Shown: positions 19,880-42,936 of the stretch, piece by piece
Position numbering within the stretch: the first letter of the stretch is position 1
How the letters are laid out: the number at the start of each line of letters is the position of its first letter
Made by a program: the position numbers and the translations under genes
Notes under the pieces: generated by a model
What the model saw: the letters and a program-made list of their open reading frames with translations, nothing else
Told to the model about the DNA's origin: nothing
Database searches by the model: none
Assembly: GCA_965214675.1 (NCBI GenBank)
Contig: OZ243969.1
Span: 1,797,511-1,861,510 of the forward strand
Reading direction: 5' to 3'
Length of the DNA stretch: 64,000 bases
Source: Gammaproteobacteria bacterium
GTDB taxonomy: Bacteria > Pseudomonadota > Gammaproteobacteria > UBA4575

Positions 19880-20401
19880 ATGACAAATGACGTTCACTCC
19901 AATAGGCATCAGGTAAAGATTTTCTGCACTGGCGGAACCCTGGACAAAGTGTATTTCGATGCCCTGAGCGAGTACCAGATTGGCGATCCCGTAGTATGCG
20001 ATATTCTCAAAGAAGCTCGGGCGAGATTCCCACACGAGGTACGGTCCATCCTGAGAAAGGACAGCCTGGAGATTACTGCAGAAGACCGACAGCAGATTGT
20101 AGAGCATGTCAAAGCGGAAGACTGTACACGCATCTTGATTACCCATGGTACGGATACCATGGTAGAAACCGCACAATGCCTGCAGCAAGTCCCTGGCAAA
20201 ACGATTGTACTGACTGGAGCCATGCAACCTGCGCGGTTTCGCAATACAGATGCCATTTTTAATATTGGCTACGCGATTGCCGCAGCCCAGCACCTTCCTC
20301 ACGGTGTTTATCTGGCGATGAACGGGCAGCTTTTCACCCCCGAATCAGTACAGAAGAACCGCGAGGCAGGGCAATTCGAGCAGATACAGGACTTCAAATA
20401 A
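19880..20401 (+). CDS. short asparaginase-domain protein
   Basis: TGGTLDK, ITHGTDTM, LTGAMQPA, AMNG. Confidence 0.88.
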   Translation: MTNDVHSNRHQVKIFCTGGTLDKVYFDALSEYQIGDPVVCDILKEARARFPHEVRSILRKDSLEITAEDRQQIVEHVKAEDCTRILITHGTDTMVETAQCLQQVPGKTIVLTGAMQPARFRNTDAIFNIGYAIAAAQHLPHGVYLAMNGQLFTPESVQKNREAGQFEQIQDFK

Positions 20402-22324: not shown

Positions 22325-22558
22325 TCATCCCCCAGTGACTGGCGGAAAGAAAGCCACCTCGTCACCGTCTTCGACGATATGTGCAAAATCTGCGTATTCC
22401 TGATTGATAGCCACTAACACCCGCTCAGGCCGCTGCATGCCGCTTGTTGTCTGATGCCAAATTTCTTCTACAGTGGCCCGTCCCGTTATCGAGATTTCAT
22501 CACTCGAACGCCCAATCGTTTCTCGCAGACTCGCAAAATACTTTACATGGACGGACAT
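22325..22558 (-). CDS. moaD: molybdopterin synthase sulfur carrier subunit
   Basis: [28 protein letters not shown]. Confidence 0.95.
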
Positions 22559-22643
22559 TGCTGTACCTCAGTATTTGATCGACAATGTGAAAGGTTTGCA
22601 TCGAATAGTACCATTACTATTTTGGAAATATGGAGTCAATGAC

Positions 22644-23126
22644 GTGACTAGATTTACGCATTTCAATCCTGCAGGAGAAGCGCACATGGTCGATATTGGC
22701 GGAAAGCCGGTTACCCGCCGTGTTGCTGTTGCAGATGGAAGAATATGCATGCATACAGAAACATTGCATAGCATACAAAAGGGCAGTCATAAAAAGGGTG
22801 ACGTGCTGGGTATTGCGCGGATTGCCGGCATAGCAGGTGCAAAAAAAACCTCGGATCTGGTTCCTTTGTGTCATTCGATACCCCTGACATCGGTGCAGGT
22901 CGAGTTTGCGTTCGAAGATACCGTGCCAGCTGTGTATTGCAAGGCTACCGTGGAAACACTCGGCCAGACAGGTGCGGAAATGGAAGCACTGACTGCCGTG
23001 CAGATCGCTTTATTGACAATCTATGATATGTGCAAGGCAAAAGATCGAGGCATGACCATGCAAGCAATTGGCTTGGTACGGAAGTCTGGCGGCAAGTCTG
23101 GTGAGTGGGAGCGTGATGGACAGTAA
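22644..23126 (+). CDS. moaC: cyclic pyranopterin monophosphate synthase
   Basis: [43 protein letters not shown]. Confidence 0.96.
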
Positions 23127-24615: not shown

Positions 24616-24691
24616 GGCCAGGTAGCTCAGTCGGTAGAGCAGTGGACTGAAAATCCTCGTGTCGGTGGTTCGATTCCGCCCCTGGCCACCA
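24616..24691 (+). tRNA. tRNA-Phe (GAA)
   Basis: 76 nt GGCCAGG...CCTGGCC-ACCA, D loop AGTCGGTA, anticodon loop CTGAAAA, T loop TTCGATT. Confidence 0.97.
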
Positions 24692-24933: not shown

Positions 24934-25338
24934 TTAATAAGCTCCAGATTTCATCACATCTGCCACTGTTGTGTATGTGATAGTCCATGCTTCTCTAGTT
25001 TCAGGTGTGAATTCATCTTTTAAACCCTTTTCTAGGGTCCAAAGTAATGCTTCACCAACTTTGTCATAATCTTCAGCTTTAACGCCATACGAGACATGTT
25101 TGTTACCTAATTCTTTGATTGGATCTAATAAAGGTTCTAAATCATCAAGGCTATTTACTGCAAGTGTGATCATTTGCATGAGTTTTTTCCCTTGTTCTTT
25201 CATATCGCCTTTGAAATAGGGTTTAACTTCTGGGTAAATTTCAAATAAACGGGTGTAGAACATATCAGCAGCCACTTCGCTTATAGGGGTTACTTTTGAC
25301 CAAGAATTTTTAACAAGCTCTTTTTGTTCTGGTGTCAT
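24934..25338 (-). CDS. single-domain globin
   Basis: FYTRLF (B10 Tyr), PYF (CD1), EQGKKL (E7 Gln), LGNKH (F8 His), YDKVGEALLWTL. Confidence 0.92.
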   Translation of the reverse strand: MTPEQKELVKNSWSKVTPISEVAADMFYTRLFEIYPEVKPYFKGDMKEQGKKLMQMITLAVNSLDDLEPLLDPIKELGNKHVSYGVKAEDYDKVGEALLWTLEKGLKDEFTPETREAWTITYTTVADVMKSGAY

Positions 25339-25730
25339 TATTTTTCCTTTTTTATGTTGATATAGTGTTGAGCAAGTTCAGTCATATAGTCTACAGCTGC
25401 TTTTACTTCTTCATCGGTTAATGATTCGTTACCGCCTTTCGCTGGCATCATAGAATCATCTGGACCAAAAAATCCTTCTATAGCATGCGTATAGAGTATT
25501 TCAGTTTCTTGCTCTAAACGTTTTTCCCAATCTCCTGGAATTAATGGGTTTGGGGAATCCGCTATTCCGTATGCATGGCAGTTTTCACATGTATCTAGCC
25601 AAATTGAGCGTCCATGCTCCAAGTGAGTTCCTTCAAACTTGATGTATTCAGTCTTTTCAGCATGCAATACATTGTTTAAAAGTACGCATGCTGTAAATAT
25701 AAGGATTGTTGTTGGTTTAAGCTTAGCCAC
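25338..25730 (-). CDS. cytochrome c5-type monohaem cytochrome
   Basis: Signal peptide, CENCH, HAIEGF...MMPAKGG...LTDEEVKAAVDYM. Confidence 0.9.
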   Translation of the reverse strand: MAKLKPTTILIFTACVLLNNVLHAEKTEYIKFEGTHLEHGRSIWLDTCENCHAYGIADSPNPLIPGDWEKRLEQETEILYTHAIEGFFGPDDSMMPAKGGNESLTDEEVKAAVDYMTELAQHYINIKKEK

Positions 25731-26331
25731 TAACTGGAATACGTATTACTACGCCACCCATTACGTCGCCGACTTTGAAATCATCTTTAGGTGTATCTTT
25801 ATGTCCGTTATGACAGCTTGCGCAAACAGGTGCTACTGCGGTGTCAGCATAAACAGCAGTAAAGTACGTAACTCCACCCAACTCTTCTGTGGTGTAGTAA
25901 TTTTGTCCTTTGTTTTCAGCTACAAACTTTAAACCTTCTTTTTCTGCATTGGTTTCGGGTGCATTTTGCTTATTAATTGGCCATAGCGATTGCAATGAGT
26001 AGCTGAAATTAATGTCTGGATTCTTTTCAGCTTTCTCTGCAACCATTTCCGCACCAAATCGAAACATTTGGGCAGGTAAGACTAATGCTTTATCGTCATC
26101 AAAATGTTCACTGGCTTTAATTACTTTTTCTTTCTTCACTAGCCGGTTCACAATTTTCTTTGTATAAACCGCTCGATCAGAATCCATTACCATATGTAAT
26201 GCATCGGCCATGGTTCTTGGTGTGATGGATGGAATATCACCTGCATCTGATGCCCAGACAATGCTTGCACCTAATGCAGTGACACATACAAAGGATAATA
26301 ATATCCATGACTCCCTTAGTTTACTTTTCAT
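25723..26331 (-). CDS. Tll0287-like (DUF3365-type) periplasmic haem c protein
   Basis: Signal peptide, LPAQMFR, YSLQSLWPINKQNAP, CASCH, FKVGDVMGGVVIRIP. Confidence 0.8.
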   Translation of the reverse strand: MKSKLRESWILLSFVCVTALGASIVWASDAGDIPSITPRTMADALHMVMDSDRAVYTKKIVNRLVKKEKVIKASEHFDDDKALVLPAQMFRFGAEMVAEKAEKNPDINFSYSLQSLWPINKQNAPETNAEKEGLKFVAENKGQNYYTTEELGGVTYFTAVYADTAVAPVCASCHNGHKDTPKDDFKVGDVMGGVVIRIPVSG

Positions 26332-26409
26332 AATTTCCTCTTAGTTTTTAGGTTGGGGGAAGTTAAATTAAAATAGCAATATGTTTTTTCATTTGAGAAT
26401 TTATTTCTT

Positions 26410-27810
26410 TTATTCATTATTCTTTTTATTTAAGTGCTGCTCGTTATCTTTACGCGCAAGATCTGTACTTTCTATATGCACAGTAGGTTGACCATTGAAG
26501 TTGTTGTTTATTAACTTTTGATCAGCTAATGCATTAATCGAAAAGCCCAAGCCATGACAATGCAGGCAGGATGAACGAATCATTTTGCTGTTGGGTGAAA
26601 GGTTTCCGCTTTGGTTATGATCAACCATTACGCGTGTTAACCATTCATTTACATCGTATTCCACTCTTGGCATATGACAGCTGGCGCATGAAACACCTGT
26701 AATAGAGTCATCGTTACTCTTAACTTGTTGTTGCCATAATTCATAATGGGGCGAATCTTTGTAAGCAAGAGTGTGATCATCTGCATGACAATCTAAACAG
26801 CTTTCAACTGCAGCCAAAGTTGTATCGAATCGATGTGCTCCATGGCAACTTACACATGCAAGTTCGTTATGTGCAGCACTTTTATTCATCGGCAGCTGAG
26901 CATCTTTGGGGGTCATGGGAGAAAGCCCGACTGCCAAACGCATTCCATGTTTACCTAATTTAAATCTCTCAACCTCAGTACCATGACAAGTTTGGCAGCT
27001 TTCTATACCTGGGTGGTCATTCCATGCAGAAAGTTCGTTTTGCTCGTTGCGAATTTGATGGCAGCCACTACAATTCACTCCTGCTTTGGAATGTGCGGTT
27101 TCCAACCAGTCACGATGAATGACATTGTCATTGTTAGAGGTTTCAGGTGCATCTACATCGGTTGATTGCAATGTTTGAACAGGATATAAGTCGCGTGGAT
27201 ACCCGAGAATTTCATCCAGTACATTTAAAAATTCGCTTTCAGGTAAATGTGGATTAGGCATGTGCATGGGGGCATCCATATGTTTAACAAGAAAGTCGGT
27301 ATACAAGGCGCGGTTGTTATGAAAGTTATGGCATCCGGAATCTTTACATGTGGTGAACTCCATATCGATGTGTGATGGCCTTTCTTCACCAACATCTTCA
27401 TGACAATGAAAGCAAAAATCTATGGGTTGGGTAAAACCATCTTTTTGTGTGATCTCAGGCTTATGTTCAACATGACAACTTGTACACATGAGTGCATTTA
27501 TTTTTTCTAGTCTATTTGCATTCCTTGGGTCTTTAAATTTTGAGCGAGGGTGTGAATCAAACGGTTTTACGCGTTGATCTCCATGGCAATTGATGCAGGC
27601 TTCTTGTAGCACTTCACCACCTCCAAATGCATTTGTATGGCAACTCTCGCAAGCGTTCTCCAATTGATGGTGACCCGCACTTAAATCCCCAGGCATAAAA
27701 ATAGCTTTGCTTACACCATCTCCTAATAACTGATAAACAAAAATCAGTACCAGTAAAGCACTTGCAATAAACCAAATGGTCCAAATTTTTAAAGTACTTT
27801 TTTTGGTCAT
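26410..27810 (-). CDS. membrane-anchored multihaem cytochrome c (10 CxxCH + 1 CX4CH), C-terminal half HAO-like
   Basis: N-terminal TM; CESCH, CINCH, CTSCH, CFHCH, CKDSGCH, CSGCH, CQTCH, CVSCH, CLDCH, CASCH, CLHCH. Confidence 0.88.
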   Translation of the reverse strand: MTKKSTLKIWTIWFIASALLVLIFVYQLLGDGVSKAIFMPGDLSAGHHQLENACESCHTNAFGGGEVLQEACINCHGDQRVKPFDSHPRSKFKDPRNANRLEKINALMCTSCHVEHKPEITQKDGFTQPIDFCFHCHEDVGEERPSHIDMEFTTCKDSGCHNFHNNRALYTDFLVKHMDAPMHMPNPHLPESEFLNVLDEILGYPRDLYPVQTLQSTDVDAPETSNNDNVIHRDWLETAHSKAGVNCSGCHQIRNEQNELSAWNDHPGIESCQTCHGTEVERFKLGKHGMRLAVGLSPMTPKDAQLPMNKSAAHNELACVSCHGAHRFDTTLAAVESCLDCHADDHTLAYKDSPHYELWQQQVKSNDDSITGVSCASCHMPRVEYDVNEWLTRVMVDHNQSGNLSPNSKMIRSSCLHCHGLGFSINALADQKLINNNFNGQPTVHIESTDLARKDNEQHLNKKNNE

Positions 27811-27822
27811 ATAAATTCACTT

Positions 27823-29841
27823 TTAATACCAGTAGCTTTTTAAAATATGCCAAGCCAGTAAAACTGGTACAGGCCAAAAAAGAAAAATATGCCAAAGTAC
27901 TGATAGCCGTCTCACGCGTGTACTAGATGCATTACTAATACGATGTTCAATACCAATTAAGCCAGTAGAGATAGCGCCAATAAATAACATGCCAGTAAAA
28001 CTGAGCATTAAAAGAAAACTTAACCCGTTTCCTAAGCGGAACCCCGTATGCGCAATCAAACCAAGAATAACAAGCACACCGAGTGCAATATGAAACATGC
28101 GCCAGAACTCAAACTTTCCTAGTTTGTCAAAAGCTCGAATTCGTTTGCGTAATGAAACTAACAGTCCAACCGTGAATAGACCTAAAATTGTAAAACCAGA
28201 AACTTGCTTATTAAATTGTTCTCTCCATAACATATCCCAATGCCATTCGTGTTGAACAGATGTTGCATAAGGAATTGCTGGGGCAAAGAAAAACAATAAT
28301 GTAGCCAGCAAGGCAAAGCTGGAAAATCCAATTAATGTTTTATGCATTGATGTAGGTTCGGATATGCTTTGGTTACCTAATAGGTCTTGCACAAGTGGTT
28401 TGCATGAGCCACATACTGTGCTTGCACCTGTTTTTTTAGAAACTTCTTCAAGTTTGCAAGTGCCTGCTGAGATGGCACTTTCAATGGATCCTTTTGTTAC
28501 CCCCATGCACTGACAGACCAATGCATGAGATGGCCATGCGCTTACACCTTGGCTAACTTCTTCTGACCAAACATTTCCTGTGTTTATAAATCGAATGATT
28601 TGCCAAGGGAAAATATATTCATTTTTACCTATTAGGGTTTGTAGTCGAACGGTTTCTCCCCAATTGCCAAGTCCAATTGCGCCTTTTAGGCGATAGCGGT
28701 GGACTAATATTTTTCTGTAAACGCCTTTTTTGTCATCAAAGTATTTATACGTTTTTCCATAGTGTGATATTTCATTGACCCCTATCGGGCCCATGCTAAA
28801 CACTTGTGTACCTACAATTTTTAAGCGCGATGCAGCGATTGAGCCTGCATAGTTATTTACAACTTTAAAAATATTTGCGGCTGCTACTGATGCTTGTTCT
28901 AATCCAGGTGTAACTAACCCATAAACTTTGTTTTGATGTTCTGCACATTCGCCAATTGCATATATATTTCTATTCGATGTTTGCATTGCATTGTTCACGG
29001 TTATGCCGCGAGAAAATGCAAGTCCAGCATTTTTAGCTAGACTAATATTTGGACGAATTCCTGTTGCAACAATTAGTGTATCGCACGTAAGTTCCTTTCC
29101 GGAACGAAGTCGAATCCCTTTTAATCTTTCGTTAACTAATACTTCAACAACTCCGTCACCAATAATGACGTTAATCCCTAGTGATTCAATTTCATTTTGT
29201 AATAGCTCTGATGCGTCCTCATCTAATTGTTGGCCTAATAAATGATCTGTGTTTTCTACTAGTGTGACTTTGGTGTTGCCCATTTGCATTGCGCGTGCAG
29301 ATTCAATACCTAATAAGCCACCTCCCAAAACTATGGTGTGATGGCTTCTCGCGCGTCTTGCTAATAATGCATTTGCATCTTTTAAATTTCGAAAGGTATA
29401 TACGCCTGTTGCATGAATACCTTTGATATCAGGCAGGTGTGGGTTAGATCCTGTAGCAAGAACTAACTTAAAGTATGGTTGGGTTTTCCCAGTATTGTCG
29501 GTGACTGTTTGCTTATCAGTATCGATAGATTCAATTTTGTAACCAATTTTTTCAGTTACATTGTGTAATGCATTTTTTTCAAGTGGCTGTAGTAATGTTT
29601 CCCAATTAATTTCACCCGCAAGCCAAGAAGATAATTGAACGCGATTATATGTCTCATACTGTTCTTCTCCGTAAATGACGATTGGGGTACTTGATTTGTG
29701 CTCCAACAGCTCGCGAACTACTCGCATGCCGACTGGACCGTTACCAATTATTACAATTGGCAACGGTTCAATCTCAGCATTGTCGCAGTACTGAGGGCCT
29801 ATTATATTTTCAGCTTGTTTATGAAAATTATTTTTTTTCAT
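27823..29841 (-). CDS. NirB/NasB-like FAD/NAD(P)H oxidoreductase + BFD [2Fe-2S] + C-terminal membrane domain
   Basis: IIGNGPVG, LGGGLLGIE, YAIGECAEH, CQC...CGSC; five hydrophobic helices with two Hx13H pairs; no sirohaem domain. Confidence 0.85.
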   Translation of the reverse strand: MKKNNFHKQAENIIGPQYCDNAEIEPLPIVIIGNGPVGMRVVRELLEHKSSTPIVIYGEEQYETYNRVQLSSWLAGEINWETLLQPLEKNALHNVTEKIGYKIESIDTDKQTVTDNTGKTQPYFKLVLATGSNPHLPDIKGIHATGVYTFRNLKDANALLARRARSHHTIVLGGGLLGIESARAMQMGNTKVTLVENTDHLLGQQLDEDASELLQNEIESLGINVIIGDGVVEVLVNERLKGIRLRSGKELTCDTLIVATGIRPNISLAKNAGLAFSRGITVNNAMQTSNRNIYAIGECAEHQNKVYGLVTPGLEQASVAAANIFKVVNNYAGSIAASRLKIVGTQVFSMGPIGVNEISHYGKTYKYFDDKKGVYRKILVHRYRLKGAIGLGNWGETVRLQTLIGKNEYIFPWQIIRFINTGNVWSEEVSQGVSAWPSHALVCQCMGVTKGSIESAISAGTCKLEEVSKKTGASTVCGSCKPLVQDLLGNQSISEPTSMHKTLIGFSSFALLATLLFFFAPAIPYATSVQHEWHWDMLWREQFNKQVSGFTILGLFTVGLLVSLRKRIRAFDKLGKFEFWRMFHIALGVLVILGLIAHTGFRLGNGLSFLLMLSFTGMLFIGAISTGLIGIEHRISNASSTRVRRLSVLWHIFLFWPVPVLLAWHILKSYWY

Positions 29842-29914
29842 GTAAAAAAATTCACACCTACATTTCTGTATAGGTATGACTTTGTTGTCTAAATAATTTG
29901 TTTGAATTTAATAA

Positions 29915-29931
29915 AGCAAGATCGATGCCAA
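29915..29931 (-). promoter_or_regulatory. sigma54 promoter of the oxidoreductase-cytochrome operon
   Basis: Minus strand TTGGCATCGATCTTGCT fits TGGCA-N6-TTGC; NtrC-like site TGAATCAGTTTGGTGCA at 30045-30061. Confidence 0.8.
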
Positions 29932-30189
29932 TTTTTTATTATCAAGATAAATATATGAAATTATTTATGTTAATTCCGCTTTTGCTTTATTAATTAAAAA
30001 ATTTCAAATATTAAAATGATTACGCTCTATTTGAGCACGCTGGATGAATCAGTTTGGTGCAAAAATTGCATCTCTCTTACTGAATGCCGGGTGCATTCTT
30101 TTGTAAAAATCCTGGGTTTGAAAAGCATGCGCGTGAAACTGGGCTTGCAGAACGTACACAAGCTGGCGTATTAGCAAATATTCACTAAA

Positions 30190-30615
30190 GGGCATTCGGG
30201 CGGCTGTAGGTAAAGACCCATAGACACGGAAGTTCTCCTGTCACACCCGTTGGATCTCACCCTGTAGCCACGCATATCGATGCCGATACGCATCGATATA
30301 CCGGACCATTACTTCAGTTTGCAGTCGAGCTCCGCCTGCGCGAAAAAAGCCGAAGCGGTCCCCAGAATTTCATTCGCACGACGCAACTCCCGAACCTCCT
30401 TCTCCAGGGCCTGCAAGCGACTGGATCCGTCCGGTACCACCACTCCTTGTACACCTTCTCGCCCTTGCGCACCTAGTCCGCAACGTCTTCGGACTGCAGC
30501 CCAGCGTCGCAGCTACCGACAGTATCCCTGACCACTCCGATGGATGCTCCTCGCGACCCGTGCTCACCAGGCGCACCACTCTCTCTTTGAACTCCGATAA
30601 ACCCGGTACAGTTCA
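30190..30615 (-). mobile_element. degenerate IS3-family (IS51/IS629-like) fragment
   Basis: Terminal TGAACTGTACCGGGTTTATCGGAG read from 30615; OrfA remnant VRLV...[20 protein letters not shown] and [23 protein letters not shown]; GC-rich relative to the island. Inner end is approximate. Confidence 0.8.
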
Positions 30616-30617
30616 CC

Positions 30618-30720
30618 CGCACTAAAATCGAACACGAGTGCTTATTTTGAGTGCAAATATATTTGCAAGTACCCGAAATCATTAATAAATGAACTAAAAA
30701 AAGTTGGCAAGAAAATTGCT
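30618..30720 (+). promoter_or_regulatory. NtrC-like sites and sigma54 promoter of nrt operon
   Basis: CGCACTAAAATCGAACA (30618-30634), TGCTTATTTTGAGTGCA (30639-30655), TTGGCAAGAAAATTGCT (30704-30720). Confidence 0.8.
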
Positions 30721-30875: not shown

Positions 30876-32258
30876 GTGCTGGATAGCAGACTAGGAAAAA
30901 TCAAACAGTTTGGTGTGGCATGTCTATTAATAGGATTTGCTCTTTTCAATAGTGTTGCCTATGCAGAACTAGGTGAGCCAGAGAAAGAAGATTTAAAGTT
31001 TGGTTTCATCAAACTGACCGACATGGCCCCCATTGCAATTGCATATGAGAATGGTTATTTCGAAGATGAAGGTTTATATGTAACGATTGAAGCTCAAGCA
31101 AATTGGAAAGTGCTTCTTGATGGTGTGATTGATGGTCAATTGGATGGCGCCCACATGCTTGCAGGTCAACCGCTTGCAGCAACAATTGGTTTTGGAACAA
31201 AAGCTCATCTCATTACTCCATTTTCAATGGATTTGAATGGTAACGGGATTACAGTATCGAATGATATTTGGGCACAAATGAAGCCTAATATTCCAAGAAT
31301 GGAAGATGGTCGACCCGTTCACCCGATCAAAGCAGATTATTTAAAACCTGTAGTAGAGAAATATAAAGAAGAAGGTAAGCCATTTAATATGGGAATGGTA
31401 TTCCCGGTGTCTACGCATAACTATGAACTACGTTATTGGTTAGCTGCTGGAGGTATACACCCAGGATACTATGCGCCACATAAAGGTGATATCACAGGTC
31501 AAATTGATGCTGATGCATTGCTTTCTGTAACTCCACCACCACAAATGCCTGCAACATTAGAGGCGGGAACAATTTATGGATATTGTGTGGGTGAACCGTG
31601 GAATCAACAAGCTGTTTTCAAAGGTATCGGTGTTCCTGTAATTACAGATTACGAAATATGGAAAAACAATCCTGAAAAGGTTTTTGGTATTACAGCAGCG
31701 TTTGCGGAAAAGTATCCTAACACTACTATTCGTTTAACACGCGCATTAATACGTGCTGCTATATGGCTAGACGAAAATGATAATGCAAATCGTCCTGCTG
31801 CAGTAAAAATTCTTTCACAGTCAAATTATGTTGGTGCAGACTACGATGTAATTGCAAACAGCATGACTGGTACATTTGAATATGAAAAGGGCGACAAAAG
31901 AGAAATTCCTGATTTCAATGTTTTCTTTCGTTATAACGCAACTTATCCTTATTACTCTGATGCAATTTGGTATTTAAGTCAGATGCGTCGTTGGGGGCAG
32001 ATTGCTGAAGATAAATCAGATGATTGGTATAAGGTAATTGCGGCAAAAGTATATCGACCTGATATTTATAGTAAAGCCGCAATGTCGCTTATCGATGAAG
32101 GTTTAGCGGATGCAGAAGGGTTCCCAGATTTTGAATCAGAGACAGGTTTTAAACCACCACAGCCAGAATTTATTGATGAGATTACTTTTGATGGTTCAAA
32201 ACCAAATGAATACTTAGAAAAGTTTTCAATTGGTTTAAAAGCAGGCGATAAAGTTTAA
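30876..32258 (+). CDS. nrtA: CmpA/NrtA-family nitrate/nitrite ABC substrate-binding protein
   Basis: [59 protein letters not shown]. Confidence 0.9.
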
Positions 32259-32311
32259 GTCGATTGGGGAAAAAGGTTTAACTTTTCACAAACTTATTGA
32301 GCTATAGAGAC

Positions 32312-33307
32312 ATGTCTAACAGTGCATTAATACATAAAATAAGTGCTAATTCTGAACTTTCGCTTGGTTTGGTGTCGTTTTTTTTAAACGCATTTCATCA
32401 AATCGTAATACCAATACTTGGGATATCAATTTTCTTATTGCTGTGGTCATTTGCTGCAAAAAATGTTGAGACATCATTAGGAAATTTTCCTGGTCCTGGA
32501 GAGGTTTGGAAGCAATTTGGCGGTCTTTATAGTGAGTATAAAACTGAACGAGGTAAGGAAGATGCGTTCTATCAAAGGTTAGAAGAGCGCAATGCAAAAA
32601 AATTGGCTAAGAACCCTGATTATGTACCTAAGAAACGTAAATATACAGGTAAAGAAACCTTTCTTGACCAGATCTTTACTAGTTTAAAAACCGTAATGTG
32701 TGGATTCTTGCTTGCAGCTATTATTGCAATTCCACTTGGCATCGCGATTGGATTAAGTAAAACGTTAAATACTTCAGTGAATCCAATCATTCAGATATTT
32801 AAACCTGTATCACCTTTAGCTTGGCTGCCGTTAGTTACCATGGTGGTTAGTGCATTATATGTTTCTGACAATCCAATTGTTCCAAAGTCGTTTATTAATT
32901 CGATGATTACTGTAACGCTTTGTTGTCTATGGCCAATGGCAATCAACACCTCAGTGGGAGTTGCGTCAATTAATAAAGATTTAGTAAATGTAAGTCGAGT
33001 ATTAAAACTACCTCCGCTTAGTCATGTAAGAAAAATCGTAATACCAGCATCGGTACCCAGCATTTTCACAGGTATGCGTTTATCTCTAGGAATCGCATGG
33101 ATGGTGCTTATCGCGGCAGAGATGTTGGCTCAGAATCCCGGATTAGGAAAATTTGTATGGGACGAATTCCAAAATGGAAGCTCCAACTCATTAGGAAGAA
33201 TAATGGCTGCAGTAGTTGTTATTGGATTTATTGGGTTTTTGTTAGATCGTGCAATGCTCCAGATTCAGCGTTTTGTATCTTGGGATAAAGCCTCTGCAAC
33301 ACGCTAA
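32312..33307 (+). CDS. nrtB: nitrate ABC transporter permease
   Basis: KPVSPLAWLP, FTGMRLSLGIAWMVLIAAEML, GLGKFVWDEF. Confidence 0.9.
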   Translation: MSNSALIHKISANSELSLGLVSFFLNAFHQIVIPILGISIFLLLWSFAAKNVETSLGNFPGPGEVWKQFGGLYSEYKTERGKEDAFYQRLEERNAKKLAKNPDYVPKKRKYTGKETFLDQIFTSLKTVMCGFLLAAIIAIPLGIAIGLSKTLNTSVNPIIQIFKPVSPLAWLPLVTMVVSALYVSDNPIVPKSFINSMITVTLCCLWPMAINTSVGVASINKDLVNVSRVLKLPPLSHVRKIVIPASVPSIFTGMRLSLGIAWMVLIAAEMLAQNPGLGKFVWDEFQNGSSNSLGRIMAAVVVIGFIGFLLDRAMLQIQRFVSWDKASATR

Positions 33308-33348
33308 TTATTTTTAAATTGTTAATTTCGGTAACTAGAGCCCTAGTT

Positions 33349-34203
33349 ATGAATAATGTAATTCTTGATATCAGCGATATCGATATGGAGTTTCCAACGC
33401 CTAAGGGGCCATTTACTGCGCTTAAAAAAATCGATTTAAAAGTTTCAAAAGGTGAGTTTGTGTCACTTATTGGGCATTCCGGTTGCGGTAAGTCCACAGT
33501 GTTAAACATTGTAGCTGGTCTTTATCAAGCAACACGTGGTGGTGTAGTGCTAAGTGGTAAAGAGGTCACATCACCGGGCCCTGAACGTGCAGTGGTATTT
33601 CAAAATCATTCATTGTTACCTTGGTTGACGGCCTATCAGAATGTTGAATTGGCAGTTAAACAAGTATTCAAGAAAACAAAATCAAAAATAGAGTTAAAAG
33701 AATGGATCGAGCATAACTTGAGTTTGGTGCATATGGACCATGCAATGCACAAACGTCCGGATGAGTTATCTGGTGGGATGAAACAAAGGGTGGGAATTGC
33801 AAGAGCGCTATCGATGCAGCCGGAAGTTCTGCTCATGGATGAGCCATTTGGCGCATTGGATGCACTTACGCGTGCATATATGCAAGAGACGTTAATGGAA
33901 ATTCAAAACGAACTTAAGAATACCGTAATTATGATAACGCATGATGTAGATGAGGCTGTATTGTTGTCAGATAGAATTGTAATGATGACTAATGGTCCAT
34001 CTGCAAAAATTGGTGAGATTCTTGAAGTTAACCTTGAACGCCCAAGAGATCGAATTTCTTTGGCAGAAACACCAGAGTATTCTAAGTTGCGTCACGCAGT
34101 ACTCAGTTTCTTATATGAAAAACAAAGAAAAGTAGAAAATATATCGGGCCAACAACGTAAGACACCAGCCCAAGCTACATTAAAAAATAGCGCAGTTGCC
34201 TAG
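33349..34203 (+). CDS. nrtD: nitrate ABC transporter ATP-binding protein (NrtC/D type)
   Basis: GHSGCGKST, VFQNHSLLPW, LSGGMKQR, MDEPFGALDALTR, MMTNGP. Confidence 0.88.
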   Translation: MNNVILDISDIDMEFPTPKGPFTALKKIDLKVSKGEFVSLIGHSGCGKSTVLNIVAGLYQATRGGVVLSGKEVTSPGPERAVVFQNHSLLPWLTAYQNVELAVKQVFKKTKSKIELKEWIEHNLSLVHMDHAMHKRPDELSGGMKQRVGIARALSMQPEVLLMDEPFGALDALTRAYMQETLMEIQNELKNTVIMITHDVDEAVLLSDRIVMMTNGPSAKIGEILEVNLERPRDRISLAETPEYSKLRHAVLSFLYEKQRKVENISGQQRKTPAQATLKNSAVA

Positions 34204-34488
34204 AAATCATTACTATTCAAGTCCAATAAGAACTTAATCGATATTAACAGGAGACAATATCTATCATTTACAAGAAGAGGATAAGGTTTCTCATATCTTT
34301 GTAATGTCGTTTTGGAAAGTAAAAGTTTTTCGTTTACGGTGCAATGGGCCGCAAACTCCTCGTCCCGCTTTCTGTCGACCGCCTGATCCACCACTTTTGC
34401 ACTCATTTTCAAACACCTTTGGCACTACGATGCCGTGTCTTCGTTTAAGGGTATTTATACGACGTTCAAAAGTAGGTAGGGCATGTTT

Positions 34489-34534
34489 CTGAAAATCCTC
34501 GTGTCGGTGGTTCGATTCCGCCCCTGGCCACCAT
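34489..34534 (+). repeat. att direct repeat copy 2 (partial tRNA-Phe)
   Basis: CTGAAAATCCTCGTGTCGGTGGTTCGATTCCGCCCCTGGCCACCAT, identical to 24647-24692. Confidence 0.93.
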
Positions 34535-41805: not shown

Positions 41806-41934
41806 AGCAAAAAACGGGCCAACTCTGCGAACCAAGAGAGTTCATTGAAATTTTGTCATATCTGGGTCATTAAAGAAGACGTCGTGACTGCATTATTGCA
41901 CTGAAATGGTGCATTTTTGCACTAAAATCTTGCG
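41806..41934 (-). promoter_or_regulatory. sigma54 promoter and NtrC sites for cynS
   Basis: Minus strand TTGGCCCGTTTTTTGCT (41806-41822); TGCAC-N7-GTGCA at 41897-41913; second site TGCACTAAAATCTTGCG at 41918-41934. Confidence 0.8.
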
Positions 41935-42003: not shown

Positions 42004-42936
42004 TTACTGCATGCTTTTCGTCTGAAGCATCGCTGAAGACCATTCCGAGGCAAGCTCCAGGAAGGCGAGGCATGCGGGACTTTTGTACCCGCTTTTGTGC
42101 CAGATCATGCTGACCGTGTGATGAGGAAGTTCTGGCATGACTTCAATAGGATGGAGTCCCCTTTGTGTGTTGATGATGGTACTGGGCAGGACTGTGGCCA
42201 GTGAACCCAGTTCAACCATCTCAATGATCACCGTCAGTGAATTGGTCTCAATCACATTTCGTGGTTCAATACCGTAGTCATGGCAATAGCGATCAATATG
42301 ATGTCGAAGGGCAAAGTCGGTATTCAGCTGTACCAGGGACTCCTTGCCAAAGTCCTGGGCATTGAGATGTTTTTTTCGTTTGGCGCGGGGATGCGCATCG
42401 CCGACGGCAAGATAAAGGGCCTCCTCGAACAAGGTAAAAGTTTCCGTATTACTGGAGGCTTCCTCGGAATCGGAGGGCTTGCTGAATGCGATTCCGATGT
42501 CAATTCGGGCCTCTGATATTGCAGGCTCAATATCATCTTGGGGCATATCCAGTGTGCTCAGCGTGATGCCAGGATACAGATGGTGATAGCGGGCCAGTAA
42601 GGAGCACGTCAGGTAGTCTGTTATTGGCGTCCACCCCAGTCGCAGTGAGCCACGACTGAGATCTTGAACATCCTGGATCGCCCGGGTACCGATGTTCAAT
42701 TCTCCCCATGCACGGCGTGCATGCTGCAGAAAGATTTTCCCGGCATCGGTCAGTTGTACAGAGCGGCCCGACCGGTCCAGCAGGGGTGACTGCAGGTAAT
42801 CTTCCAGTTGTTTGATTTGCTGGGATAACGTGGGCTGTGAAACATGCAAGGCCTCTGCCGCACGCGTATAGCTGCCATATTCTGCTATGGCAATCAGGTA
42901 CTGGAGAGAACGTGGGAAGATGTCCCGTCGGTCCAT
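42004..42936 (-). CDS. cynR: CynR-like LysR transcriptional regulator
   Basis: HTH TRAAEALHVSQPTLSQQIKQLE, DLSRGSLRLG.TP, DIGIAF, FALR..ID.Y. Confidence 0.85.
   Translation of the reverse strand: MDRRDIFPRSLQYLIAIAEYGSYTRAAEALHVSQPTLSQQIKQLEDYLQSPLLDRSGRSVQLTDAGKIFLQHARRAWGELNIGTRAIQDVQDLSRGSLRLGWTPITDYLTCSLLARYHHLYPGITLSTLDMPQDDIEPAISEARIDIGIAFSKPSDSEEASSNTETFTLFEEALYLAVGDAHPRAKRKKHLNAQDFGKESLVQLNTDFALRHHIDRYCHDYGIEPRNVIETNSLTVIIEMVELGSLATVLPSTIINTQRGLHPIEVMPELPHHTVSMIWHKSGYKSPACLAFLELASEWSSAMLQTKSMQ

Follow-up and report, generated by a model that had tools for sequence, protein, structure and literature searches.

The 64-kb window analyzed here (G000:C1:1797511-1861510), which lies in a complete, single-contig gammaproteobacterial genome of 1.87 Mb, carries on its minus strand a five-gene operon (24934-29841) that appears to be a transmembrane electron-export system built from known parts, widespread and unannotated. 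Its genes encode, in order, a flavoprotein that joins the N-terminal module of the nitrite reductase NirB to a membrane tail, an 11-haem cytochrome c, a stand-alone Tll0287-like haem c protein (here called the haem-Cache protein), a class I cytochrome c, and a single-domain globin. We tentatively suggest that the operon is an accessory of the nitrate-assimilation regulon, which would send electrons from NAD(P)H into the periplasm for use against nitric oxide (NO), hydroxylamine (NH2OH), or nitrite, while the globin would work in the cytoplasm. This reading is supported because the NirB head comes without its sirohaem half, the cofactor ligands are invariant, the tail and the cytochrome are found in exactly the same genomes, and the two are predicted to form a complex. 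If it is right, electrons from NAD(P)H bypass the quinone pool on their way across the inner membrane to c haems in the periplasm, a route that we did not find described, and the nitrate-assimilation regulon has a widespread addition that is unannotated. The five open reading frames (ORFs) lie head to tail, with 12 nt between the flavoprotein and the cytochrome and 78 nt between the cytochrome and the Tll0287-like protein, and the last three overlap by 8 nt and then by 1 nt; these coordinates agree with the five-gene operon with overlapping last genes that a first-pass annotation of this DNA had described.

The flavoprotein (27823-29841, minus strand; 672 residues) contains Pyr_redox_2 (1e-52), Rubredoxin_C, and Fer2_BFD (7e-13) domains. 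The NirB model TIGR02374 aligns with it only through the first 485 of its 794 positions (404 bits, where the cut-off is 578; 1e-120), and no Pfam match to the 4Fe-4S/sirohaem domain NIR_SIR was found in the protein. The sirohaem half of NirB is replaced by a tail of five transmembrane (TM) helices (residues 495-672), a stretch that matches no Pfam family. The fusion thus shares with NirB the FAD/NAD(P)H part and the BFD-like [2Fe-2S] domain but has neither the 4Fe-4S/sirohaem half nor NirD. Among 50 full-length relatives, the FAD, NAD, and [2Fe-2S] elements are all kept and the four BFD cysteines are invariant.

Four histidines of the tail (H584, H598, H651, and H665) are invariant both in the 50 full-length relatives and in a set of 20 tails that includes one paralogue. 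H584 and H598 lie on one helix and H651 and H665 on another, each pair with a spacing of i/i+14, which is the arrangement of two His pairs on two TM helices that characterizes di-haem cytochromes b. Two b haems held by paired histidines across the membrane are the pattern of cytochrome b and of the NADPH oxidases, and the histidines of the tail likewise suggest two b haems stacked across the membrane. The five helices are predicted by a hydropathy reading and by a structure model alike, the latter showing a helical bundle with a mean pLDDT of 85. The [2Fe-2S] domain and the basic loops RKR and RVRR share one side, predicted to be the cytoplasmic one. When the 20 tails were compared with di-haem b families, 13 matched DUF4405 (best 5e-4), four Ferric_reduct, and four Ni_hydr_CYTB, all under the cut-offs of these families; a sequence search of the PDB with the tail returned nothing. 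The design follows the logic of the NADPH oxidases, ferric reductases, and MsrQ, in which cytoplasmic NAD(P)H, flavin, and two b haems on paired histidines are put in series. However, the head is of the NirB/BFD type and not FNR-like, the acceptor would be a multihaem cytochrome, and the tail stays under the Pfam thresholds.

The second gene (26410-27810, minus strand) encodes a cytochrome of 466 residues, assigned by motif count and alignments, in which an N-terminal TM helix is followed by ten CXXCH motifs and one CX4CH motif (counted in the translation). All 11 haem motifs are invariant in 50 sequences. Histidines 47, 87, 116, 147, 164, 240, 288, 326, 346, 355, and 398, which lie outside the motifs, are invariant as well, and His177 is nearly so. 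No CXXCK occurs in the sequence, all 11 motifs ending in His. In databases the protein is named "cytochrome c3 family" or, wrongly, "nitrite reductase"; its homologue P0135 stands among clusters named automatically "putative nitrite reductase (cytochrome; ammonia-forming)" or "cytochrome c3 family," which are labels only.

The tail and the cytochrome go together without exception in an evenly sampled set of genomes of the class. The tail fusion was found in 23 of the 400 genomes scored for it (the genome of the window, G000, and 22 others at E < 1e-20; G248 was unscored for the tail) and the 11-haem cytochrome in 23 of 401 (E ≤ 1e-30), and these are the same 23 genomes, about 6% of the sample. 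Kin are not independent in this or any other genome or locus count given here, which weighs against reading too much into such counts. Outside the sample, the fusion protein has at least 120 relatives of about 666 residues and 48-82% identity (the best 120 of 5,251 hits), the remaining hits including ordinary NirB; the named sources are Thiosocius teredinicola, Thiocapsa, Sedimenticolaceae, Granulosicoccus, and Burkholderiaceae, the first of these being given for the homologues P0017 and P0135. The cytochrome gave 2,501 hits at E ≤ 0.001, the best 120 of them all at least 57% identical, and no plasmid record encodes it at E ≤ 1e-20. We mapped the window proteins onto 21 related loci, 20 from carriers of the class sample and one (L009) that was the only true relative in a scan of genome contigs with a single fusion protein. 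The cytochrome gene follows the fusion gene in 20 of the 21 loci (it is partial in L046, and L048 ends at a contig edge), and the core triad of fusion, cytochrome, and haem-Cache protein is present in 19.

A complex of the tail (residues 495-672), the cytochrome (residues 1-230), and two haems was predicted with a score of 0.70, compared with 0.00 for the best of three controls. Of 80 solved complexes, 58 attain this mark, as do 2 of 110 mismatched pairs; these counts hold only roughly here because our own alignments were used and the haem ligand was present. Contacts agreed between runs by at least 92%, and the pLDDT of the partners was at least 68. In the model, the TM helix of the cytochrome (residues 9-28, in which W10 and W13 are near-invariant) lies against the last tail helix (652-672), and on the periplasmic side the tail loops 522-530 and 604-608, together with the C-terminus, touch cytochrome residues 36-41, C54, and H58 of the haem 1 motif. 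The anchor and the first haem of the cytochrome are thereby placed on the periplasmic face of the tail, and the prediction supports binding of the two proteins. The first-pass annotation had proposed an NAD(P)H/FAD/[2Fe-2S] protein with a bis-His membrane tail, an 11-haem periplasmic cytochrome, and an electron path from one to the other, to be checked by co-folding them. The domains and the haem motifs are as it described, with an N-terminal membrane anchor now added to the cytochrome; the ligands along the path (the four His of the tail and the four BFD cysteines among them) are invariant, and the co-folding, run on these two fragments, predicts that the proteins bind.

The third gene (25723-26331, minus strand) encodes the haem-Cache protein of 202 residues, which has a signal peptide and belongs to the Tll0287-like family expected from the first pass (PF11845, 68.6 bits against a cut-off of 24.1). 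It is the best conserved protein of the operon, with 51-88% identity across the related loci where the fusion protein shows 38-82%. A sequence search of the PDB returned nothing for it, the best match being a Cas1 chain at E 0.92. A 2026 preprint has redefined the Tll0287 family as sCache_heme; in its available portion the function of the stand-alone members is left open, and they are stated to show no pattern of gene context and to lack signalling partners (10.64898/2026.02.01.703092). The protein of the operon shares with this family the PF11845 fold, the CXXCH motif (conserved in 21 sequences), and the form of a stand-alone periplasmic protein. Unlike Tll0287 and the stand-alone member from P. 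putida, it lacks the distal Cys: the mature protein has no Cys outside CXXCH and none is conserved in the 21 sequences, which does not fit the Cys/His axial ligation of Tll0287. In the portion of the preprint at hand, the member that binds NO is a signalling one without the distal Cys (10.64898/2026.02.01.703092), and the likeness of our Cys-less protein to it supports the suggested role against N-oxides. That same portion contains no occurrence of the words nitrate, nitrite, multiheme, or operon and makes no mention of an operon in which such a protein stands beside a flavo-cytochrome b and an 11-haem cytochrome (10.64898/2026.02.01.703092). The operon is a conserved, testable context for one stand-alone sCache_heme subfamily. 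As signalling sCache_heme members sense NO, according to the part of the literature available, it could also be imagined that the haem-Cache protein is a sensor of NO or of redox state in the periplasm, with the chain relaying the signal inward. We consider this extremely unlikely: the operon contains no signalling output domain, 11 haems and a flavoprotein would be an unusually costly relay, and the stand-alone members are described, in the portion of the preprint available, without signalling partners (10.64898/2026.02.01.703092).

The last two genes are a class I mono-haem cytochrome c of 130 residues (25338-25730, minus strand; PF13442, Cytochrome_CBB3, at 1e-9, and PF00034, Cytochrom_C), which has a signal peptide, and a globin of 134 residues (24934-25338, minus strand; PF00042, 1e-20, 74.7 bits), which has none. 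The globin had been named as the last gene in the first pass, and the family match agrees. It is a single-domain protein and not fused to an FNR-like reductase as in flavohaemoglobins; the Hmp model NF009805 is matched at positions 4-134 only (78.5 bits, cut-off 432). Among solved structures it is nearest to the Methylacidiphilum globins 3wfw (1e-30) and 3s1i, followed by neuroglobins, Hmp, and VHb. Tyr28, Gln49, and His81 align with residues in these matches and are presumably B10, E7, and F8; a Tyr-Gln-His trio at these positions is linked to NO dioxygenase chemistry. Of the 21 related loci, nine have the class I cytochrome c and 13 have an Hmp-type globin; four of those without the Hmp type have a truncated globin (PF01152), so that a globin of either class is found in 17.

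The nearest example of the cytoplasmic half of the operon is the NasT-controlled narK-bjgb-flp-nasC system of Bradyrhizobium japonicum, in which, according to the part of the source available, a globin and an NAD(P)H flavoprotein remove the NO that comes from the assimilatory nitrate reductase (PMC4724949). The two systems share NasT control, a single-domain globin, and an NAD(P)H flavoprotein (PMC4724949, in part). However, Flp is soluble, the B. japonicum system as described there has no membrane tail, multihaem cytochrome, or haem-Cache protein, and the likeness of Flp to the head is one of description. The precedent also suggests another reading, in which the head is a diaphorase for the globin (a split flavohaemoglobin), for a NasA-type reductase, or for both, as Flp is, and the membrane and periplasmic haems would do no more than anchor it or take up surplus electrons. 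Flavoproteins of the NirB-N type act for nitrate reductases, and Flp does so for both NasC and Bjgb, as far as the available text goes; globins in 17 of the 21 loci and the lack of a full Hmp in any carrier would fit as well. Nevertheless, we regard this reading as unlikely, since the exact 23/23 pairing with the cytochrome, the invariant histidines of the tail, and the strong conservation of the haem-Cache protein point to the periplasmic arm as the core, and four of the 21 loci show no globin.

A survey of gene neighborhoods, which the first pass had called for, bears out the link to nitrogen metabolism. An ANTAR response regulator of the NasT type lies directly upstream of the operon in 10 of the 21 loci, and nine have a sigma54-type motif in the upstream region of the same strand, with at most two motif hits per locus of about 18 kb. 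The full nrtABD set is adjacent in seven loci. L009 has only an nrtA-like gene, beside which a NIR_SIR protein is encoded, and in L055 a NirB-like gene follows nrtD. The predicted regulators in the related loci are the control logic of nas operons, that is, nitrogen limitation combined with antitermination in response to nitrate or nitrite. A gene for an alginate-export-like outer-membrane porin was also seen within or next to the cluster in four of the 21 loci (L009:8627-9988, L055:5516-6793, L056:11463-12674, and L059:4977-6137), and this porin may admit substrate to the periplasm.

The nitrogen context could also mean that the operon encodes a sirohaem-free assimilatory reductase of nitrite (or of NO or hydroxylamine) that makes periplasmic ammonium and stands in for NirBD or NirA, as the first-pass annotation had inferred. 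A NirB head minus its sirohaem half, an NrfA/HAO-like cytochrome, and the nitrate context are in line with this, and two carriers, G068 (100% complete) and G397 (72% complete), have no full-length NirB. The window itself contains no NirB C-terminal domain and no Mo-bisMGD enzyme, so that the absence of a sirohaem domain and a nitrate reductase from it, also noted in the first pass, stands; nirD was seen only beside a distant nirB, and no genome-wide search for nirD was made. That nirB belongs to a nirB-nirD-nasA-like operon about 114 kb upstream of the window (G000:C1:1677019-1683810; locus L061, 5019-11810), which encodes a full NirB (846 residues, 1,074 bits), then NirD, a NasA/NasC-like molybdoenzyme of 757 residues, and an Fe-S protein. 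This last protein, encoded after the nasA-like gene, has 572 residues, of which 55-205 are DmsB-like 4Fe-4S. In the class sample, full-length NirB over the cut-off was found in 21 of the 23 carriers (18 of 20 carriers searched, together with G000, G249, and G261) compared with 133 of 378 non-carriers, or 131 of 376 without the unpublished G039 and G141, which are NirB-positive non-carriers; overall, 154 of 401 genomes are NirB-positive. No statistical test was applied to these counts because kin are not independent, and the direction is clear: the module goes with the sirohaem nitrite reductase and does not replace it. In G193 and G282, NirB lies on the same contig only a few kb from the cluster. 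The expectation that carriers would lack nirBD or nirA therefore fails. With a cytochrome that has no CXXCK and no evident open haem in addition, a sirohaem-free route is very unlikely.

Electrons would thus enter the accessory from NAD(P)H and pass to FAD and the BFD-type [2Fe-2S] cluster of the cytoplasmic head, from which they could reach the putative b haems of the five-helix tail, the inner at His584/His651 and the outer at His598/His665. They would then move to haem 1 of the 11-haem cytochrome and through its STC-like and NrfA/HAO-like haem modules to the haem-Cache protein in the periplasm and, in loci that have one, to the class I cytochrome c. At the periplasmic end, N-oxides that arise or leak in nitrate assimilation (NO, hydroxylamine, or nitrite) would be reduced, whereas in the cytoplasm the globin would handle NO or O2 and might be reduced by the flavoprotein head. 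Control would be by nitrogen limitation through sigma54 and, in relatives, also by nitrate or nitrite through a NasT-type antiterminator. The gene set, the conserved ligands, the co-occurrence, the neighborhood, and the island structure come directly from the analysis, and the contact of tail and cytochrome is a prediction; we infer the binding of haem b by the tail, the direction of flow, the substrate, and the reduction of the globin by the head. The role as an accessory is further supported by the nitrogen context, the presence of a globin in the unit, the precedent from B. japonicum, the likeness of the cytochrome to N-oxide enzymes, and the finding of no full-length flavohaemoglobin over the cut-off in any of the 23 carriers, although this absence is not significant. 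In the literature outside subscription journals we found no description of the gene cluster. Closest in concept to the periplasmic half is the reverse-HURM pathway of Nautilia profundicola, which is said to be quinol-linked and to replace sirohaem or NrfA enzymes; in the operon, by contrast, the donor would be the NAD(P)H flavoprotein head, and NirBD is present in the genome. What the two would share, according to the available parts of the sources, is a periplasmic enzyme of the HAO family run reductively in nitrate ammonification or assimilation (PMC3701875, PMC2628731).

Several observations weigh against the accessory reading, and many of them concern what the cytochrome can do. Twelve invariant or nearly invariant non-motif histidines for 11 haems, together with the lack of CXXCK, mean that the cytochrome may be a pure wire in which every haem is possibly bis-His, and its sequence gives no sign of an open catalytic haem. 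A profile built from 50 sequences matches NrfA (5e-8), the octahaem nitrite reductase (4e-7), and E. coli NrfA (1e-6), but these matches are local (50-70 residues), are made of di-haem motifs, and pair the haems inconsistently. At the level of the whole protein no NrfA or octahaem likeness was found (NF008339, 25 bits against a cut-off of 595), and the haems could not be mapped onto haems 1-5 of NrfA because the local alignments pair different haem couples. The N-terminal part aligns to the tetrahaem domain of the flavocytochrome c fumarate reductase Fcc3 (E 0.011). An AlphaFold2 model, computed without haems, has a mean pLDDT of 77.7 and a pTM of 0.78, with residues 80-167 at low confidence. 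Its ten best Foldseek matches in the PDB are all HAO, HDH, or the Kuenenia reducing HAO-like protein (probability 0.89-1.00, E 4.9e-4 to 2.3e-2), but their TM scores are only 0.26-0.31 with rmsd of 13-20 Å, and E ≤ 0.001 is reached by one of 67 matches. The HAO fold hinted at in the first pass is accordingly favored by the ranking of the matches and weakened by their scores.

By its haem packing, we take the cytochrome to be a remote member of the NrfA/HAO superfamily, and it may or may not be catalytic. It shares local di-haem packing with NrfA, the octahaem enzymes, HAO, and HDH (E 5e-8 to 4e-6) and differs from them in its 11 haems, its membrane anchor, and the absence of CXXCK. It is possible, though doubtful, that the operon is an NAD(P)H-driven transmembrane reductase that converts NO, hydroxylamine, or nitrite to periplasmic ammonium through this HAO/NrfA-like cytochrome and the haem-Cache protein, both fed by a NirB-derived flavo-FeS-cytochrome b. 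Were that so, it would be a second, salvage route of nitrogen assimilation for sulfur-oxidizing and other marine Gammaproteobacteria, and the first physiological role for stand-alone sCache_heme proteins.

Other points against the accessory reading lie outside the cytochrome. A Foldseek search of the PDB with the tail gave no match at E ≤ 0.001, the best being a talin bundle (E 0.17), and FdnI, cytochrome b561, and SpNOX are among the fold matches at TMq 0.38-0.46 and E > 1. The P. putida stand-alone sCache_heme member, which has the distal Cys, is a +123 mV cytochrome with weak NO binding, as given in the available portion of the preprint (10.64898/2026.02.01.703092). The absence of Hmp from the carriers is insignificant because only about 1.3 would be expected among 23; the idea that the module replaces Hmp was rejected on this ground (0/23 against a base rate of 22/400). 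The NtrC-like site claimed in the first pass also proved weak: upstream of the operon there is one weak dyad with two mismatches (30045-30061, found in a dyad scan), only the position of which fits, and the window contains 33 such dyads compared with 36 in shuffles.

The weightiest point is a paralogous triad that has the same tail without a redox head. It lies elsewhere in the same genome (G000:C1:455788-459129; locus L062, 5788-9129), has host-like GC, and has no adjoining nitrogen genes. Its first protein, of 393 residues, is a GPP34 domain (PF05719, 3e-35) fused to a tail of 31% identity in which the four histidines are kept, and it is accompanied by an 11-haem cytochrome (39-49% identical) and a haem-Cache protein. 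A search with the GPP34-tail fusion yielded 741 relatives at E ≤ 1e-10; among the best 120, nearly all are about 392 residues long and most match at full coverage. All three genes of the triad recur, at 71-75% identity, on the metagenome contig L063. A metagenome scan with this fusion brought up mostly plain GPP34 proteins (2 of 80 loci match into the tail, one of them complete), and no other genome of the class sample has a GPP34-type triad. There are thus at least two types of head, of which the NAD(P)H type is one, and the core of the system consists of the tail, the cytochrome, and the haem-Cache protein. This core can therefore operate with no NAD(P)H dehydrogenase fused to it, perhaps on electrons from quinol, and it is mainly for this reason that our confidence in a path from NADH to the periplasm is limited.

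The paralogue also fits a quinol-linked core, in which the di-haem tail would exchange electrons with the quinone pool like NrfH, CymA, or cM552. The NirB-type or GPP34 head would then be regulatory or would feed or drain the haems, and the NirB type could be an NADH:quinone or NADH:cytochrome c bypass. In favor of this are the GPP34-headed proteins, which keep the four histidines and the downstream cytochrome and haem-Cache genes, and the class I cytochrome c with a cbb3-type signature in 9 of the 21 loci. However, no quinone-site motif was identified, the NirB-type head keeps all of its FAD, NAD, and [2Fe-2S] elements, invariant in 50 sequences, and a general bypass offers no ready reason for control with the nitrate regulon. 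We regard a quinol-linked core as unlikely.

Upstream of the operon, a motif scan of the window found a sigma54-type -24/-12 element, TGGCATCGATCTTGCT, at 29915-29930 on the minus strand. It is the only such match in the 64 kb and lies 74-89 nt upstream of the ATG of the flavoprotein gene, in keeping with the sigma54 promoter that the first pass proposed for the operon; of 100 shuffled windows, 32 had at least one match somewhere. A leader hairpin of 11 pairs with a hexaloop (29852-29879, minus strand) came out of a terminator-like scan. A run of seven T after it ends 2 nt before the ATG, and the hairpin covers the likely ribosome-binding site. Targets of ANTAR proteins have a hexaloop with A at position 1 and G at position 4, which the loop CAGAAA does not fit, and the hairpin was rejected as an ANTAR target. 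No ANTAR gene is present in the window, and the single one in the genome is at G000:C1:1471353-1471517.

The genes nrtABD are divergent from the operon, in the orientation given by the first pass, at a distance of 1,034 bp. They encode, on the plus strand, an NrtA-like substrate-binding protein (30876-32258; PF13379, NMT1_2, at 1.6e-96), an NrtB-like permease (32297-33307; TIGR01183, 165 bits, under the cut-off of 209), and an NrtD-like ATPase (33319-34203; TIGR01184, 356 bits, cut-off 291.8). The spacer to nrtA contains a decayed, frameshifted stretch on the minus strand (30240-30640) that we take, from its OrfA wording and by eye rather than by a family search, to be a remnant of an IS3-family element comprising the end of OrfA and the start of OrfB. 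It lies between the divergent promoters and has a GC content of 53-61% within low-GC surroundings.

The operon and nrtABD form a low-GC, horizontally acquired island at a tRNA-Phe gene. The left border is tRNA-Phe (GAA) at 24616-24691 on the plus strand (ARAGORN; attL-like), and the 3' 64 nt of this gene recur at 34471-34534 on the plus strand with 89% identity, the copies agreeing throughout their 3' part; this partial copy (repeat family D1) is the attR-like right border. The 9.8 kb between the repeats contain only the five operon genes, the IS remnant, and nrtABD. GC is 0.38-0.43 at 24-34 kb compared with about 0.50 around it in the composition of the window, and the flanks are housekeeping genes, with mutY, moaC, and degP on one side and a methyltransferase gene on the other. 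A border tRNA gene, a direct repeat of its 3' end at the opposite border, and deviant composition are the marks of a tRNA-inserted island. No integrase was identified between the repeats (Pfam/NCBIfam, ORFs of at least 100 residues), and the IS3-type remnant is the sole trace of a mobile element seen there. In a genome-wide search, the nrtD-like gene of the island was the only match to the nitrate ABC ATPase model TIGR01184, no NarK-type transporter was found at E ≤ 1e-10, and the ORFs scanned around the nirB-nirD-nasA operon showed no transporter gene. As the only recognizable nitrate transporter lies in it, the island appears to supply uptake for a pathway encoded elsewhere, and it is an example of nitrate-assimilation capacity completed by horizontal transfer in a 1.87-Mb genome.

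Three further features of the window may be mentioned. The MoaC ORF (22473-23126, plus strand; 217 residues) is matched by MoaC models only from residue 59, and the listed GTG start is probably too far upstream, unless the protein has an N-terminal extension. An ORF of 173 residues (19880-20401, plus strand) aligns with no more than about the first 150 of the 337-352 positions in asparaginase models and may be a truncated gene. The best NtrC-like dyad of the window, TGCACTGAAATGGTGCA at 41897-41913 with one mismatch, lies some 90 nt past the stop codon, on the low-coordinate side, of the minus-strand ORF 42004-42936 and may mark another nitrogen-regulated gene.

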